A stretch of DNA of 64,000 nt, taken from positions 4,969 to 68,968 of the forward strand of contig PDOO01000026.1 in the NCBI GenBank assembly GCA_002742885.1. The letters run 5' to 3'. This document shows positions 50,310 to 57,316 of this stretch, one piece after another; the stretch's first letter is position 1; each line of letters begins with the position of its first letter. Made by a program: the position numbers and the translations under genes. The stretch is from Candidatus Cloacimonadota bacterium (GTDB taxonomy: Bacteria > Cloacimonadota > Cloacimonadia > Cloacimonadales > GCA-2742885). The notes below the pieces were generated by a model. The model was not told where the DNA came from, searched no databases, and saw only the letters and a list, made by a program, of their open reading frames with translations.

Positions 50310-51545
50310 TTATATTTCAAAGTAATTCGTAACTTCTTCTGCTTTTTTCCCTCGAAAAGGAACCAAAGCTCTGTCCAGAACTCCCTGCAATTTAGAAATG
50401 GCGACACCGTAATTGGTTATTACGGTTCCTTTCCGTTCGGCTTCGGAAATTCTTCGGTTCATTTCCATGTTGTTCAACATGCAGGCGCCGCAATGCAGAA
50501 TTAATTTATATTGCGTTAAATCATCCGGAAAATCATGACCTACGCAAACATCGTAAACCAATTTCTTTCCGGTATATTGAGTCAGCCAACGCGGAATTTT
50601 AACTCGTCCTATATCGTCGCATTGCACGCTGTGCGAGCAAGTTTCGGCTATCAAGACCTTATCTCCGTCTTCCAGATTATCGATTTGTTCGGCTCCTTTT
50701 ATTAACTTATCCAAATCGCCTTTGTATCGGGCAAATAAAATTGAAAAGGTGGTAAGCATAATGTCGTCCGGCACGTCTCCGGCAACTTTCAGGACAACCT
50801 GAGAATCCGTAACAACCAATTTTGGAGGGGTTGACAAGTTTCTCAAAGCTGCTTCAATTTCTCGCTCTTTCACGATTATACCAATGGCATCGTTATCCAA
50901 AATTTCACGCAACACCTGAACCTGAGGCAAGATCAAACGTCCTTTCGGGGCAGCGAGATCAATGGGAGCAATCAGTAAAACGGTATCTCCCGGATTTATC
51001 AAATCGCCGACCAAAACTTTTTCATCCATAAGTTTTGACGGAGCCAAATTTATTATTGCGTCTTTCAACTCCGCAATGCCTGTTTTTTCTTCAGCTGAAG
51101 TCTTAACCCAGCTGATCTGAATATGATCCAATAAAGCGGTATCTTTCTTTTCCGGTTCGATAATTTCCGATTTATTGAAAACAACAAGATAAGGAATTTT
51201 TAATTCCCGCAAACGTTTCATCAAATAATGATCATCATCCGAAAGTTTACCGTCTCCCACCGTCAAAACGGCAATATGAGAACGAAGCAAAACTTTATTG
51301 GTTTTGGCAATTCGCTTTTCTCCAAGTTCTCCGACATCGTCAATTCCGGCTGTATCGTATAAGGTTACGGGACCCAAAGGCAACAATTCGTAAGATTTGG
51401 CAACCGGATCAGTGGTTGTCCCGGCATAATCAGAGACAATCGCCAAATCCTGATCGGTCAAAGCATTTATCAATGATGATTTACCGGCATTTCTTCTGCC
51501 GACAACAGTAATTATAAGACGTTCTCCTCTGGGAGCTTTAGCCAT
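50310..51545 (-). CDS. hydF: [FeFe]-hydrogenase maturation GTPase
   Basis: GRRNAGKSS, GTTTDPV, DTAG, APKGRLILPQVQ, CSH, HCGAC, TNYG. Confidence 0.97.
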   Translation of the reverse strand: MAKAPRGERLIITVVGRRNAGKSSLINALTDQDLAIVSDYAGTTTDPVAKSYELLPLGPVTLYDTAGIDDVGELGEKRIAKTNKVLLRSHIAVLTVGDGKLSDDDHYLMKRLRELKIPYLVVFNKSEIIEPEKKDTALLDHIQISWVKTSAEEKTGIAELKDAIINLAPSKLMDEKVLVGDLINPGDTVLLIAPIDLAAPKGRLILPQVQVLREILDNDAIGIIVKEREIEAALRNLSTPPKLVVTDSQVVLKVAGDVPDDIMLTTFSILFARYKGDLDKLIKGAEQIDNLEDGDKVLIAETCSHSVQCDDIGRVKIPRWLTQYTGKKLVYDVCVGHDFPDDLTQYKLILHCGACMLNNMEMNRRISEAERKGTVITNYGVAISKLQGVLDRALVPFRGKKAEEVTNYFEI

Positions 51546-52608
51546 TTTTACCTCCGCTTTTTTTCTTTCGGAAATGAGGAGAATCGCCCCACTCTCCGTA
51601 ACCGACTTCTTCTTTTACCGACTCAATGCTTTTCTGTAAATAATTTCGGCATTCCGAAGCATTTTCATCCACACACGGTTTATTGTCGTATAAAAGGTAT
51701 TGCTTTCTGTATTTCAAACCGGTAATTACAGGCATGACAATATTTGCTCCCGCTTGAAGTCCGAATTCTCTTCCGGTCGGGTTTAAAGCCTGCAAAGCGG
51801 TTGTGGCGGCGATATTTACGTCTTTAAGAACAAGTCTGGTAAGGGCAATCATTTTTAAGCCCATAGTCAATTGTTTTTCTTTATCAAAATTTTTTACTTT
51901 TTTTGCCAAAGGCGTTTCGTTATGCACCACATAAGGTCCCATTCCGATCATATCAACGTCGTTATTTTTGAAAAATAAAATATCCTTTGCCAAGTCTTCC
52001 GCCGTTTGTCCCGGTAAACCGATCATTACTCCGGTTCCTACTTGATAGCCTATTTCGCGCAGATACTCGATACAGGAAAAACGTTCGTTAAAATCATGGT
52101 CTTTCGGATGCAAAGACTGATATATAGCCGGATTGGAAGATTCTATTCTCAAAAGATAACGATGCGCCCCGGCATCATACCATCTTTGATAAGTTTCTCG
52201 TGATTGCTCTCCCAAAGAAATGGTAATTCCGAGTTCGTTATTTGACATTTTTTTTATCTTTTTGAGAACTCTTTCAATCAGAGAGACAAAAGCTTCGTCC
52301 CTTCGTTCTCCGCTTTGAATAACCATTGATCCGTAATTCTGTTTCCACGCCCATTCAGCCGATTCAACAATTTCGTCTTCCGACATCATAAAACGCTTTA
52401 CGTTGGAATTGCTTTTTCTTATTCCGCAATAATAACAGTCTTTTTCGCAGATATTGCTGAATTCAATTATTCCTCGGTAATAAACTTTATTTCCCACATT
52501 GGCTGTTTTGGTTTTATAAGCCTGTTTATACATTTCAGTTATCAAATTTTCGTCTTCTGTTTTCAATAATGAAATAATTTCTTTTTCGGAAAGATTATCC
52601 CAATTCAT
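51538..52608 (-). CDS. hydE: [FeFe]-hydrogenase maturation radical SAM protein
   Basis: RGIIEFSNICEKDCYYCG, RYLLRIE, GVMIGLPGQT, ATTAL, GANIVMP, Y.LYDNK. Confidence 0.95.
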   Translation of the reverse strand: MNWDNLSEKEIISLLKTEDENLITEMYKQAYKTKTANVGNKVYYRGIIEFSNICEKDCYYCGIRKSNSNVKRFMMSEDEIVESAEWAWKQNYGSMVIQSGERRDEAFVSLIERVLKKIKKMSNNELGITISLGEQSRETYQRWYDAGAHRYLLRIESSNPAIYQSLHPKDHDFNERFSCIEYLREIGYQVGTGVMIGLPGQTAEDLAKDILFFKNNDVDMIGMGPYVVHNETPLAKKVKNFDKEKQLTMGLKMIALTRLVLKDVNIAATTALQALNPTGREFGLQAGANIVMPVITGLKYRKQYLLYDNKPCVDENASECRNYLQKSIESVKEEVGYGEWGDSPHFRKKKSGGKNG

Positions 52609-52627: not shown

Positions 52628-53983
52628 TCAATAGCCCAGCTTATACATTTTTCCGGGATTCATCAAATCATCAAATTCTTCTTCCGAGAATAAATTTATC
52701 GCCAAAACGATTTCTTTTACACTCTTTCCGGAACTTATTGATTCGGCTAAAATTTCTTCAACTTTTTTATAACCTGCCTTTTCAATCATAACAGTTGCCA
52801 AAGATTTACTTTTTAATAAGTTAGACATACAATTCTCATTATTTGCTTTAATTCCTTTCAAACATTTTTCGTTAAACAAAGGAACAGTATTGCTCATAAG
52901 ATGAAGAGATTCTAAAACTGTATAGCTTATCAGAGGCATAAATTGGTTAAGCTCTAAATTTCCCGAAGCGGCGCATACCGATATTATTTGATCATTTGCC
53001 ATTATTTTTATCGCAACCTGGGAAATCATCTCGGGCATTACGGGATTAACTTTTCCGGGCATAACGGTTGAACCTTTTTGACGAACAGGAAGAATGATTT
53101 CCCCGAATCCTCCGTCCGGTCCGGAGGAAAGCAAACGCAAATCCGTTCCTATTTTTAAAAGATTGACCGCAGCCGCTTTCAGAATACCGGAAATTTCGGC
53201 AAATTGATCCTGATTTTGCGTTGAATCAATCAAGTTTTCGCTTCTCGAAACAGCCAAGCCGGTTATTTTGCGCAATCTGTCCGTAACTTTGAAGATGTAA
53301 TCTCTCGGAGCAGTAAGACCTGTTCCGATTGCGGTTCCTCCCAGATTAACGGTTTTGATTCTTTCCCGGCATTTAAAAACTCTCCATCTGTCTCTGGCAA
53401 TCGCTTCGGCAAAAGCCCCGAAAGTCATGCCCAAAGTCATCGGAACAGCATCCTGAAGTTGCGTTCGCCCTAATTTTACGACATCTTTGAATTCCTGTTC
53501 TTTATGCTGCAAAGTTGTTTGCATATCGCCGACTGCGGTTTCCAGCTTTTTCAAATAAAAAAGAACGGCGACTTTTAAAGCCGTAGGATAAACGTCATTG
53601 GTGGATTGATGGAGATTTACATGGCGCAGCGGATCAATTGAAAATTTTCCTTCGATTAATTCTTCGGCTCGGGCAGCTATAACCTCATTAACATTCATAT
53701 TAAAAGAAGTTCCCGCTCCTCCCTGAAAAGGATCAAGCGGGAATTGTTCAAAATGCTTTCCTGAAAGTATCTCTTTACATGCTCTGCTTATCGCAAGAAA
53801 AATATCGTTATCGAGAAAACCGAGTTCCGCATTAACTTCGGCGCAAGCAAGTTTCACGGCGGCAAACGACTTTATGAAAAGCGGATACATCTTATAACCT
53901 GAAACAGAAAAATTATCAATAGCTTTTTCCGTTTCGCTTCCGTAATATTTAACGGTCATCTTCACCTCAAAAATTTCTGACAA
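52628..53983 (-). CDS. aspA: Aspartate ammonia-lyase family protein
   Basis: QGGAGTSFNMNVNEV, QSTND.YPTA, GRTQLQDAVP, GSTVMPGKVNP, GNLELN. Confidence 0.88.
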   Translation of the reverse strand: MSEIFEVKMTVKYYGSETEKAIDNFSVSGYKMYPLFIKSFAAVKLACAEVNAELGFLDNDIFLAISRACKEILSGKHFEQFPLDPFQGGAGTSFNMNVNEVIAARAEELIEGKFSIDPLRHVNLHQSTNDVYPTALKVAVLFYLKKLETAVGDMQTTLQHKEQEFKDVVKLGRTQLQDAVPMTLGMTFGAFAEAIARDRWRVFKCRERIKTVNLGGTAIGTGLTAPRDYIFKVTDRLRKITGLAVSRSENLIDSTQNQDQFAEISGILKAAAVNLLKIGTDLRLLSSGPDGGFGEIILPVRQKGSTVMPGKVNPVMPEMISQVAIKIMANDQIISVCAASGNLELNQFMPLISYTVLESLHLMSNTVPLFNEKCLKGIKANNENCMSNLLKSKSLATVMIEKAGYKKVEEILAESISSGKSVKEIVLAINLFSEEEFDDLMNPGKMYKLGY

Positions 53984-54269
53984 TATCTTTTAATTCATCA
54001 GTCAATTCTTGCCAAAACTCTTTTCCCAAATCATTAGCTTCCGCAATCATTCCGAGCTTATCATTGATTTGATAACGAACCTGGGCTGTATCAAGACTGT
54101 CTTTACCGGCAAAAAATGACCAGCGTCGTCCTTTCAACTCACAGAAAAAAATTCTTATTCCCAGCTCTGTTTCCAGCCAATAAGCAATGGCTTCCAAAAG
54201 AGATTTAAGCTCTACATGAGGTTCTGCAATATGGCGAAGATCTTTACAGATAGATGTCGCGTTCACCAT
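53967..54269 (-). CDS. Small hypothetical protein (about 100 aa) inside the maturase operon
   Basis: Overlaps the hydG end and the aspA start and fills the gap exactly; RRWSFFAG motif; likely ATG at 54269. Confidence 0.65.
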   Translation of the reverse strand: MVNATSICKDLRHIAEPHVELKSLLEAIAYWLETELGIRIFFCELKGRRWSFFAGKDSLDTAQVRYQINDKLGMIAEANDLGKEFWQELTDELKDIVRNF

Positions 54270-55740
54270 GTCTGATCCTTTCGTAATCATCTATAAATTC
54301 TTTCAATAACTTGCTTTTTTCAAAAAACGGTTCAGCTTTTATCTCATTGATTTCTCTTTGGATTAATTCTTCTCCCACCCTTTGTGTTTCGGGGGAAGCA
54401 TAATCATCCAAAAATTCACGGAAAGTAAGAACGGCATTCAATTTACAGAATTTTCCTTCAACGCAGTGTTTAAGCATACCCATAATTTTATCGCCGGTTC
54501 TGCCGCAACGATAACCGGAAGTACAGAAAGATGTAATCATGCCCATTTGAGCCAATTCTCTGACAATTTCATCCAAAGTTCTGGTATCACCGAGCATAAA
54601 TTGTTGTCTTTCTTTTTCCTGATCGGTATATTGCTCGCTGTAAGCCCCTATCCCTATTTTCGTGGAAGCATCTGTCTGAGTACAACCGAGTTTTATAACC
54701 TGACGTTTGATTTCCTGTTCTTCGCGAGCCGTAATAATCATTCCGGTATAAGGAACTGAAAGACGCAACACGGAAACAAGCTTTTTAAATTGATCGTCCG
54801 ATACTTTGTGTTCTGATTTGATGCTGAAAGAAGATCCTTCGGCTTGAGTCATTCTCGGGAAAGAAATGGTGTGAGGTCCGATTCCGAATCTGTTTTCCAA
54901 ATCAATGGCATGATAAAGAAGCCCCATAACCTCGAATCTCCAGTCGTAAAGTCCGAATAATGCGCCTACGGCAACATCATCTATTCCGGCATCCATGGCG
55001 CGATGCAAAGCATAAAGTCTCCAACGGTAATTTGATTTAGGACCGCTCGGATGCAAAGTTTTATAACTTTCATGGTGATAAGTTTCCTGAAATACCTGAT
55101 AAGTTCCTATACCTACTTCCCAAAGTTTTTTCAAATCCTCTATCGACATAGGAGCAGCATTAACATTTACCCTGCGAATGCTTCCTTCTCCGTGTCTCGC
55201 CTTCTTCTTAACGCTGTAAACAGATTCTATCGCTTTTGCCATATAATCGGCATCGGAAGCCGGATGTTCTCCGAAAACAATGATCATTCTTTTATGACCG
55301 ATATTGACCATTGCTTCAGCTTCTTTTTTTATCTCTTCCTGAGTAAGAATACGTCTTTTTTCTTTACAATTGGCTTCCCTGAATCCGCAGTACAAACAAT
55401 TGTTTACGCAAAGATTGCTGCAATACAAAGGAGCAAAGAAAACTATTCTGTTATCGTAAACTTTCCTTTTTATTTCCAAACCGGCATGAAACATTTCCTG
55501 CCAAAGATCTTCGTCTTGAACATTTAACAAACTTGCCGTCTCAAGCGGATCAAGTCTCTGAATTTCTTTTGATTTTTGGATAATGTCTCTCACAAAAGAT
55601 TTATCCGGTTTTTTAGATGATTTTATCTGATCCCAAATTAAAGCATCATCAATAAAGTCTTTTCCGTTAATTAAATACTTATCAATTTCTTCTTGCTTAA
55701 TTACTTGATTTGCCCATTCTCTCGGCTTCATTGCAGACAT
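54244..55740 (-). CDS. hydG: [FeFe]-hydrogenase maturation radical SAM protein
   Basis: FAPLY..N.CVNNCLYC, FQETYH, GPHTISFPR, auxiliary-cluster motif CX5CX19C, GERDIY end. Confidence 0.97.
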   Translation of the reverse strand: MSAMKPREWANQVIKQEEIDKYLINGKDFIDDALIWDQIKSSKKPDKSFVRDIIQKSKEIQRLDPLETASLLNVQDEDLWQEMFHAGLEIKRKVYDNRIVFFAPLYCSNLCVNNCLYCGFREANCKEKRRILTQEEIKKEAEAMVNIGHKRMIIVFGEHPASDADYMAKAIESVYSVKKKARHGEGSIRRVNVNAAPMSIEDLKKLWEVGIGTYQVFQETYHHESYKTLHPSGPKSNYRWRLYALHRAMDAGIDDVAVGALFGLYDWRFEVMGLLYHAIDLENRFGIGPHTISFPRMTQAEGSSFSIKSEHKVSDDQFKKLVSVLRLSVPYTGMIITAREEQEIKRQVIKLGCTQTDASTKIGIGAYSEQYTDQEKERQQFMLGDTRTLDEIVRELAQMGMITSFCTSGYRCGRTGDKIMGMLKHCVEGKFCKLNAVLTFREFLDDYASPETQRVGEELIQREINEIKAEPFFEKSKLLKEFIDDYERIRHGERDIYL

Positions 55741-55759: not shown

Positions 55760-56008
55760 TTATATTTTCAAAGTTGTGGATTTGACTTTTACCGACTTTA
55801 TTTGTCCCAGTTTTCCGGTTAAACTTCCTAAAGTATCGGTTGTCATTTTAGTGATAATAAAGATAACGGCGATATTTTGTTCCGGCATCGGATACCCGAC
55901 TCGCATTTGAATTCTTTCGCCATATTCATGCAACAAAGAATTAACTTTAGGAAAAGCAGATTCTCTGTCATAAACGGTAATAGTTACTGTATGGTATTTT
56001 TCCGGCAT
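55760..56008 (-). CDS. TM1266-family iron-only hydrogenase system putative regulator (ACT/NikR C-terminal-like)
   Basis: 82 aa, first gene of the hyd operon; VN.LLHEY...I..R.G.P and LTGKLGQI..VKVK motifs. Confidence 0.85.
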   Translation of the reverse strand: MPEKYHTVTITVYDRESAFPKVNSLLHEYGERIQMRVGYPMPEQNIAVIFIITKMTTDTLGSLTGKLGQIKSVKVKSTTLKI

Positions 56009-56110
56009 AAAAAAATCCCCGTCACCTGAGATACAGAGACGGGGAATTAAAACTCTTTGTTTCTTTCGCCATCCCTTGATTTTAGAATTATCCTCAATCT
56101 CAGGAGAATT
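56009..56110 (-). promoter_or_regulatory. Candidate cis-regulatory leader RNA (terminator, antiterminator, anti-antiterminator)
   Basis: TCCCCGTC/GACGGGGA hairpin plus U7 directly before the ATG; upstream AGGGATGG can pair with CCGTCTCT; a further hairpin can hide AGGGA. Confidence 0.65.
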
Positions 56111-56478
56111 TATTTTCTTTATTTACCCTTTTGATCACAAAATTGCTTTCAATCAGGCATTAACGAACAAAATATTTTATGTTCATAAATTATGCAACCT
56201 ATTTTTTTAAAATTAAAAAATTTTTTTCACATCTGAAAATTTTTAAAAAATAATAAAAATAAAACCGTACAAGTCATAAAACATATAACTTACCAATATA
56301 TAAATAAATTAATTAAACATTTTTTATATGATTATTTCTATCCCGTCCTGCTCTTTCTATAGCGGACGTTATAAATTTTAATTTTATATCTTCCTATGTC
56401 ATTTCTTTTTTGTTTTGAAGATTATTCATATAATTTGCTCCTATTTAGCTGCTATATCCAAATTCTGCTCACTAATCA

Positions 56479-57316
56479 TTATGACCGCTCGAGTTTATCC
56501 TTATTTACCAGCCTCTTTCCATCTGTTAAACTTCCCTCTCTATGGCTTATGCTCGCTTTTTTTAAGTTTATCAATGTCTCTTTTAATTGTGGCATCACTA
56601 ACGCTTAAAATTTCACTTAATTCCAACCTTGTAATTTTAGGATTACTTAACATTAAGTCGACTATATTTCTTTGTCTATCCTTAACTGTTAATTTTATAA
56701 TATCATTAGCAATATCCTTTGGGTCATTATTTCCGACACTTTGACCGACATTTGTATCATTTACAGTATCATTCTTTGTATAATCCCCGGTATTTATCGG
56801 GTCATCTTTGTCAAATATACTATAAAAAATTACCATAATTTCATTTGGGTTAACTGTATATTTTGGTAAAGGATTACCTTCTTTTTCACAGGCTTCAACT
56901 ATTTTTTCAATACCTCGTCCCTGCGACTCAATAAACCCCGCTCTGTATAATGTCTTCGCAATTAAAGGGTTATATGGCACTGAAGAATGCTTTTCAAACA
57001 AGCTCTTTTCAGTACAACCTTCAGGAAATACACAGGTGTTACCTATAATTATTTTATCATCAAAAACCTTAATCTGAATCGGAACCTGCCTCTCATAATT
57101 TTTGTGAGCAATCGCATTTAGGACAGCCTCTCTGATCGCTTCTTTCGGATACGGGTAAGTCTCAACTCTATTAATGCCATCATAGCTTATCTGAGCTTTT
57201 AAGTATTTCAAATATAATAAATCTACAGCGTTTTTGGCTTGATACAACAAAGACCCGTAAATCTCATCTTGATATTCAATTTCAGCGCCGCTGCTAAAAT
57301 ATCCGACATCAACATC
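56479..57316 (-). pseudogene. Remnant of an AlbA/Schlafen-RecG-C (HATPase_c_4 + HTH) type ATP-binding regulator
   Basis: YPKEAIREAVLNAIAHKNY, NPLIA, IESQGRGIEKI, HTH. Homology continues upstream to a TAA at 57317 with no N-terminal domain; frameshift in the T7 run at 56557-56563. Confidence 0.7.

Follow-up and report, generated by a model that had tools for sequence, protein, structure and literature searches.

The genes for H-cluster maturation in this Candidatus Cloacimonadota genome are preceded by a leader that the earlier note read as an RNA switch. The locus raises two questions: does the leader behave like a switch, and if so, what would bind it? To our knowledge, little is known about the regulation of H-cluster maturation in bacteria. 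We analyzed the leader in a window of 64,000 nucleotides (the whole stretch of DNA under study, to which all coordinates refer) and its counterparts in related genomes.

Organization of the Leader and the Operon

The leader has the following features, listed in the order in which they would be transcribed.

56197-56169, minus strand: promoter-like sequence TTGCAT-17 nt-TATTTT
56159-56124, minus strand: H1, the upstream copy of the hairpin, from MFE folds; sequence blocks UGCCU-GA-UUGA-AA-GCA-AUUU-UGU-GA-UCAA-AA-GGGUA
56106-56073, minus strand: H2, the conserved hairpin and anti-antiterminator, from MFE folds; sequence blocks UCCU-GA-GAUU-GA-GGA-UAAU-UCU-AA-AAUC-AA-GGGA
56104-56097, minus strand: 5′ strand of H2, CCUGAGAU, whose partner in the antiterminator state is the terminator loop (56032-56025)
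56076-56065, minus strand: 5′ strand of the antiterminator (AGGGAUGG, one unpaired C, GAA), overlapping the 3′ strand of the H2 basal helix
56046-56035, minus strand: 3′ strand of the antiterminator, identical in sequence with the terminator 5′ arm
56042-56035, minus strand: CCGUCUCU, part of the antiterminator 3′ strand, opposite AGGGAUGG at 56076-56069
56045-56009, minus strand: intrinsic terminator, a bulged 12-pair stem (56045-56016) and then U7 (56015-56009)
56032-56025, minus strand: terminator loop AUCUCAGG, the partner of 56104-56097

The genes behind it are these.

55760-56008, minus strand: TM1266-like protein, 82 aa, first gene of the operon; PF21699, 92.3 bits (cut-off 27)
54244-55740, minus strand: hydG; TIGR03955, 484.5 bits (cut-off 312)
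52628-53983, minus strand: aspartate ammonia-lyase family gene; NF008909, 566 bits (cut-off 510), and Pfam Lyase_1
51538-52608, minus strand: hydE; TIGR03956, 355.7 bits (cut-off 254.6)
50310-51545, minus strand: hydF; TIGR03918, 546.9 bits (cut-off 325.6)

H1 and H2 share one plan: at the base a CCU/GGG helix, then a 2x2 purine loop and a helix of four pairs, then a second 2x2 purine loop, a helix of three pairs, and a terminal loop of four bases. The two hairpins start 53 nt apart and differ at paired positions, with compensating changes. The earlier note does not mention H1, although it falls within the span given there, nor does it mention that the element belongs to a family spread over at least three phyla and several hyd genes, or that the stem has two-fold symmetry, both described below.

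The helices drawn in the earlier note are in place, and each of its coordinates is exact when the sequence is read on the minus strand. The terminator pairs TCCCCGTC (56045-56038) with GACGGGGA (56023-56016), followed by T7 (56015-56009) and the ATG (56008). The antiterminator, pairing (ii), sets AGGGATGG (56076-56069) against CCGTCTCT (56042-56035) in 8 complementary pairs including 2 G-U. The anti-antiterminator hairpin, placed at about 56104-56074, is real, and its MFE fold extends to 56106-56073. Pairing (iv) also holds, CCTGAGAT (56104-56097) being the exact complement of ATCTCAGG (56032-56025).

An intrinsic terminator with its U-run thus lies between a promoter-like sequence and the first ORF, as in attenuators, and the Shine-Dalgarno-like GGGGA and AGGUGA sit within the terminator 3′ arm. 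A consensus promoter and terminator scan listed neither the promoter-like sequence nor the terminator. The terminator was passed over because the rule requires an unbulged stem and a loop of 3-8, and the stem here is bulged. The promoter proposed in the earlier note is present as a sequence, whereas its two boxes match the consensus at 3/6 and 4/6 positions, below the cut; because the scan omits it, the promoter is a reading of the sequence only, and it would place the start of the leader about 10-15 nt before H1. The upstream neighbor of the leader (56540-57250, minus strand) encodes a 236-aa protein with HATPase_c_4 and HTH domains, and the spacer of about 370 nt between the two is very A/T-rich.

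The gene order after the leader is TM1266-like gene, hydG, a 107-aa ORF, aspartate ammonia-lyase family gene, hydE, and hydF. The 107-aa ORF (53967-54290, minus strand) occupies the whole 260-nt space from hydG to the aspartase-like gene, with 47 nt of overlap into the end of hydG. Neither Pfam nor NCBIfam has a match for it, tblastn against 12 related hydG loci gave none either (E above 1), and it may not be a gene.

The first protein belongs to the TM1266 family, scoring above the curated cut-offs of both PF21699 and TIGR03959 (87.3 bits, cut-off 60.8); its match to PDB 2NZC has E = 1e-23. The family carries the label "putative iron-only hydrogenase system regulator" and is a structural-genomics orphan: we know of a solved structure (2NZC, from Thermotoga) and of no demonstration of its function. 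Many genomes have a second, weak match to PF21699 (20-32 bits), and the window protein also matches NF052672 (CPF_0552 family) below threshold. These matches point to a paralogous small-protein family.

Folding of the Leader

The 171-nt leader has an MFE of -48 kcal/mol, compared to a mean of -34.8 over 200 shuffles (z = -3.4); one shuffle was as good. Folded separately, H1, H2, and the terminator reach -10.8, -9.9, and -18.9 kcal/mol, respectively, and the antiterminator duplex (56076-56065 with 56046-56035) reaches -13.8 kcal/mol. At full length, the terminator state has -44.4 kcal/mol versus -41.1 kcal/mol for the enforced antiterminator state. When the nascent RNA is folded only to 56024, before the terminator 3′ arm, the lowest-energy fold is the antiterminator proposed in the earlier note, with pairings (ii) and (iv) both present. 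H1 is folded in the terminator state and in the antiterminator state alike.

Conservation of the Hairpin in Cloacimonadota

PF21699 is present in 28 of 41 genomes (the window's own genome and 40 relatives). At all 24 loci whose TM1266-like protein is at least 50% identical to that of the window (own locus counted), the hairpin precedes the gene, at a distance of 70-190 nt from the start codon. The consensus is CU-RA-4 bp-RA-3 bp-loop-3 bp-RA-4 bp-RA-RG. In the alignment of these Cloacimonadota sequences (A2, 24 rows), 97.1% of cells are paired, versus 29-71% with the partners slid, and 4/10 pairs have compensatory changes. The hairpin of the earlier note is thus conserved in homologous leaders, with compensatory changes.

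The covariance model built from A2 (R1) matches 94 of the phylum's 151 genomes and, with few exceptions, gives a single match in each. In the window's own genome, its sole credible match is H2 (53.3 bits), and H1 was not recovered. The broader model R2, described below, scores H1 at 34.5 bits; this score is partly by construction, because H1 was a training row of R2. Among 44 unique Cloacimonadota leaders, the TM1266-like ORF is directly 3′ of the hairpin in every one, and R2 detects a second full copy of the hairpin in the window leader only. In one genus (g19; loci L017, L020, L022, and relatives), a degenerate second hairpin lies about 50 nt upstream of the canonical one; its inner part fits the motif, its outer CUGA/AAGG signature is gone, and R2 does not score it.

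A strict pattern scan of the genome contigs gave 15 matches, 13 of them in Cloacimonadota; the matches in Sphaerochaetaceae and Acetobacterium bakii fall inside ORFs and are chance. When one mismatch was allowed in the own genome, two extra matches appeared, neither of which fits the motif.

A terminator hairpin and U-run stand next to the start codon in 16 of the 44 leaders; the remaining leaders look like Shine-Dalgarno-sequestering hairpins. In the eight terminator-bearing lineages, the sequence 3′ of the hairpin varies, and the terminator 5′ arm varies along with it. The hairpin 3′ flank forms its best duplex on the terminator 5′ arm in 7/8 of these lineages. The mean energy of the flank/arm duplex is -15.1 kcal/mol within a leader, in contrast to -11.8 kcal/mol between leaders, and in a permutation test, only 14 of 40320 arrangements reach the observed total. 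The relatives therefore retain a mutually exclusive antiterminator, as attenuators do. The three-helix logic that the earlier note had read from one sequence is supported both by folding and by the antiterminator pairing in these 7/8 lineages, and on sequence evidence, its suggestion of an RNA switch for the H-cluster maturation genes is also supported.

At three Cloacimonadota loci (L005, L006, and L007, in genomes G016, G010, and G035), the TM1266-like gene is of the Clostridia type (about 117 bits to the Pfam model), as are hydG (about 910 bits to TIGR03955) and the leader. This suggests that the whole module was transferred between phyla.

Occurrence in Clostridia and Spirochaetota

PF21699 is present in 76 of 120 Clostridia genomes, sampled around Acetobacterium bakii. 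Many Clostridia leaders have the same plan, often with two hairpins 43-62 nt apart and then a terminator. R1 was too narrow for other phyla. R2 was built from a joint alignment of Cloacimonadota and Clostridia sequences (A4, 32 rows). In A4, 92.7% of cells are paired and 8/10 pairs show compensatory changes, a figure that is biased toward structure, because the Clostridia rows were picked by a scanner that demanded pairing.

In 121 Clostridia genomes, R2 had 39 matches below an E-value of 0.007. In 18 cases, a TM1266-like gene follows shortly after the match. From the remaining 21 matches, we examined 20 (the match in G264 was left out): 18 are linked to hyd genes and two are chance. The hyd-linked sites precede hydG (9), hydE (2), hydF (1), an aspartase-like gene (2), an SsuA-like ABC transporter (2), and a NifH-like gene (1); one is located after hydA and before a small unidentified ORF at a contig end. 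At several of these sites, the 3′ tail of the hairpin is the Shine-Dalgarno sequence itself. A tandem match in G170 proved to be a coding repeat, and a match in G269 (contig C47) lies inside an ORF that its translation, judged by eye, names as gyrA-like; both are chance. Among weaker matches (E-values of 0.0075-0.1), 14/16 examined are chance, and 10 are inside ORFs.

The hairpin and a terminator precede an SsuA-like substrate-binding protein and permease at two of the Clostridia loci (L177 in G186 and L181 in G156), and a NifH-like/NifD-like pair at a third (L184 in G265). The regulon therefore extends beyond hydE, hydF, and hydG. Such genes may offer a clue to the signal, perhaps the supply of sulfur or of iron-sulfur.

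In Spirochaetota, PF21699 is present in 38 of 121 genomes, and 8 of the 11 R2 matches are true. Three of the true matches precede hydG, and the other five extend into the start of the TM1266-like gene. In the two of these five that we inspected (L226 in G344 and L227 in G333), the AUG and first codons (M-E-K/R-R) are inside the 3′ half of the hairpin, so that one set of bases encodes both the RNA fold and the protein's conserved N-terminus.

We aligned 27 matches from outside the training set to the model (A6). In A6, 92.8% of cells are paired and 8/10 pairs have compensatory changes; this pairing, too, leans toward structure, because the rows were aligned to the model. The element is real, and it is conserved in at least three phyla (Cloacimonadota, Clostridia, and Spirochaetota).

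Candidate Binding Partners of the Hairpin

The hairpin is absent from 13 of 14 genomes that have hydG and no TM1266-like gene. In Cloacimonadota, none of the seven such genomes, from three families, has a credible hairpin, and their weak R2 matches are chance; in Clostridia, the hairpin is missing from six of seven. The true Spirochaetota matches are all in TM1266-positive genomes (8/8). In the exception, the Clostridia genome G245, a true hairpin stands ahead of hydG-hydF and we could find no TM1266-like gene; the assembly is of uncertain completeness, and its contig ends inside hydF. It is the TM1266-like gene, rather than hydG, that the hairpin follows, in a set of related genomes that are not independent and with a co-occurrence that is partly inherent, since this gene is itself a main target of the hairpin.

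At five of the Cloacimonadota loci without a TM1266-like gene (L165 and L167-L170), hydG comes after a long ORF, an [FeFe]-hydrogenase as judged by eye. A terminator-like hairpin without the motif is located between the two, and the operon layout differs from that of the window.

The stem of the hairpin is two-fold pseudo-symmetric: each strand reads CU-RA-N4-RA-RG. In A6, the two 5′ blocks are present in 26/27 and 24/27 sequences, and the two 3′ blocks in 26/27 and 25/27. This symmetry fits a homodimeric binder. A homodimer model of the TM1266-like protein scored 0.61, compared to 0.24 for the best control, and passed a mark reached by 20 of 30 proteins solved as pairs and by 1 of 23 solved as single chains. 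The model runs agreed in at least 92% of contacts, with pLDDT of at least 91. The pass may reflect memory of 2NZC, which holds four chains.

The TM1266-like gene is the first gene behind its own leader, its family is labeled a regulator, and Pfam and NCBIfam profile searches found no DNA-binding domain in the protein. We consider that these observations favor the TM1266-like protein as the binder. On the other side, the dimer model buries the beta-sheet faces, and no obvious RNA-binding surface was identified in it to which the protein reading could point; RRM-like binding of RNA on the beta-sheet was dropped as an idea because the sheet face is buried. We take the fold to be ACT-like and know of no precedent for RNA binding by it. 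Taking both sides together, autoregulatory attenuation by the TM1266-like protein is the best reading, and we lean slightly toward accepting it.

The purine internal loops could equally well form a small-molecule pocket. The hairpin, single or in tandem, would then be a riboswitch for a small molecule or ion, using its two purine loops to bind a metabolite linked to the H-cluster (a substrate, a by-product, or iron); the ligand would stabilize the hairpin and turn the hyd genes off, and the TM1266-like gene would merely be the commonest first gene of the regulon. In A2, A4, and A6, the hairpin has the conserved structure with covariation expected of a riboswitch aptamer, with conserved nucleotides in the internal loops and a covarying stem. 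Tandem copies are frequent, the regulon combines biosynthesis and transporter genes, expression platforms of the terminator type and the ribosome-site type both occur, as they do in riboswitch classes, and G245 has the hairpin without a detectable TM1266-like gene. Against the riboswitch, 13 of the 14 TM1266-negative genomes with hydG lack the element. The RNA is also a plain hairpin of 32-40 nt whose basal helix has 2-3 pairs, with no sign of tertiary contacts and no matching class in Rfam, and its pseudo-symmetric strands are what a dimeric protein would lead one to expect over a single ligand pocket. We regard the riboswitch reading as rather unlikely.

The same clamp could be applied by a different protein: HydF, HydG, a moonlighting aspartase-like repressor, or a general RNA chaperone. 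The hairpin precedes hydF, hydG, and aspartase-like genes in one genome or another, and a symmetric stem suits any dimeric protein. However, HydG at least is no predictor of the hairpin, since hydG genomes without the TM1266-like gene lack it, and no other gene was seen to track the hairpin as closely, in a genome-by-genome profile that covered hydG and the TM1266-like gene. A different protein binder seems improbable to us.

That there is no regulated switch, and that the hairpins are RNA stability or processing elements before a terminator that acts as a constitutive partial stop, we consider very improbable. No RNA sequencing run is listed for this stretch. Against this reading, the complementarity of flank and terminator is kept through sequence change in 7/8 lineages, leaders that lack a terminator have the hairpin over the Shine-Dalgarno sequence or the AUG, and the two states of the window's own leader are nearly equal in energy.

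Proposed Mechanism and Its Implications

We propose a transcription-attenuation switch for this leader, based on two copies (H1 and H2) of the conserved hairpin. As the polymerase approaches the terminator, both strands of H2 would, judging from the folds, pair instead with the terminator 5′ arm and loop. With the antiterminator formed, the TM1266-like gene, hydG, the lyase gene, hydE, and hydF would be read. Because the nascent RNA to 56024 folds as the antiterminator, read-through would be the default path. A factor would switch the leader to termination by clamping the weak basal helix and the purine loops of H2, with H1 as a helping second site. Once H2 is clamped, the terminator would form, transcription would stop at about 56010, and the Shine-Dalgarno sequence would be buried as well, so that binding would turn the operon off.

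The factor would most likely be a dimer of the 82-aa TM1266-like protein encoded downstream. The result would be negative autoregulation, perhaps with a small ligand of the ACT-like fold as modulator, much as for PyrR. Elsewhere among bacteria, it is the ribosome-binding site that the hairpin overlaps, be it that of hydG, hydE, hydF, or the TM1266-like gene; the pair of protein and hairpin would therefore control the whole H-cluster maturation regulon. In its widest form, the proposal is that TM1266-like proteins are a new family of dimeric RNA-binding attenuators and translational repressors, which act through a symmetric hairpin in a feedback circuit over the hyd regulon of at least three phyla, in which the aspartase-like gene and some transporters would be included, and possibly respond to a metabolite. 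Our confidence in this wider proposal is evenly divided.

An element that stands before hydG, hydE, hydF, and the TM1266-like gene provides a handle on the regulation of the H-cluster and on the function of TM1266. It defines a regulon and predicts both a binding partner and an off-switch logic. If the TM1266-like protein binds the hairpin, its fold would represent a new RNA-binding family; if a small molecule binds it, the hairpin would be a new riboswitch class tied to hydrogen metabolism. Either outcome, if true, would matter for fermentation, for syntrophy, and for the engineering of hydrogen production.

Comparison with Known Systems

The earlier note had recognized no named family in the leader, and the Rfam check bears this out. 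In a search of window positions 55800-56700 against Rfam 15 (4227 models, E-values up to 10), no family reached its gathering score, and 19 related loci from Clostridia and Cloacimonadota had no matches at E-values up to 0.1. The full-text literature, in a scope that stopped short of subscription journals and supplements, yielded no description of the hairpin element and no paper on the regulation of H-cluster maturation or the function of TM1266. The element is apparently undescribed. PMC9481103 includes a passage on tungsten-cofactor riboswitches before hydrogenase genes, which are unrelated to the present hairpin.

The best Rfam match was the L10 leader (RF00557), with 34.8 bits against a gathering score of 44, over 56122-56001. 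Both are leaders that end in a terminator. However, the alignment is carried by the A/U-rich spacer together with the terminator, most of the first helix being deleted, and the gene downstream is the TM1266-like gene, not rplJ. The PyrR binding site (RF00515) scored 19.9 bits against a gathering score of 54, and the genes downstream are again the TM1266-like gene and hydG. Kink-turns of the L7Ae type have a three-nucleotide bulge followed by tandem sheared G-A pairs; the internal loops of the hairpin are symmetric (2 by 2), place RA against RA, and contain no bulge, and they do not form this motif.

The guanidine-II, NAD+-I, xanthine/NMT1, and THF-II riboswitches are short hairpins with internal loops, which sometimes occur in tandem. 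The element described here resembles them as a short conserved hairpin before terminators or ribosome-binding sites; it differs from them in that no Rfam 15 model matches it and in that it tracks the gene for one small protein.

HutP and TRAP are ligand-activated, oligomeric RNA-binding proteins that act in attenuation, and hutP is the first gene of its own operon. The putative likeness is that a small oligomeric protein would bind the repeated RNA elements of a leader once it has sensed a metabolite. In contrast to HutP and TRAP, which read short single-stranded triplet repeats, the candidate binding element here is a structured hairpin with purine internal loops.

In PyrR attenuation of the Bacillus subtilis pyr operon, the small regulator is encoded by the first gene of the operon, and its binding favors termination. 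In the PyrR leader, the protein binds an anti-antiterminator hairpin, which an antiterminator and a terminator follow, and several such sites make up one regulon. The present system differs in its protein, an 82-aa PF21699 protein in place of the phosphoribosyltransferase fold of PyrR, and in its RNA, a two-fold pseudo-symmetric hairpin in two copies. The likeness lies in a small protein gene at the head of the operon, in a leader with anti-antiterminator, antiterminator, and terminator, and in a regulon with several sites. Our analysis suggests that a known logic, attenuation or occlusion of the ribosome-binding site, is here carried out by a new RNA and probably by a new family of RNA-binding proteins.
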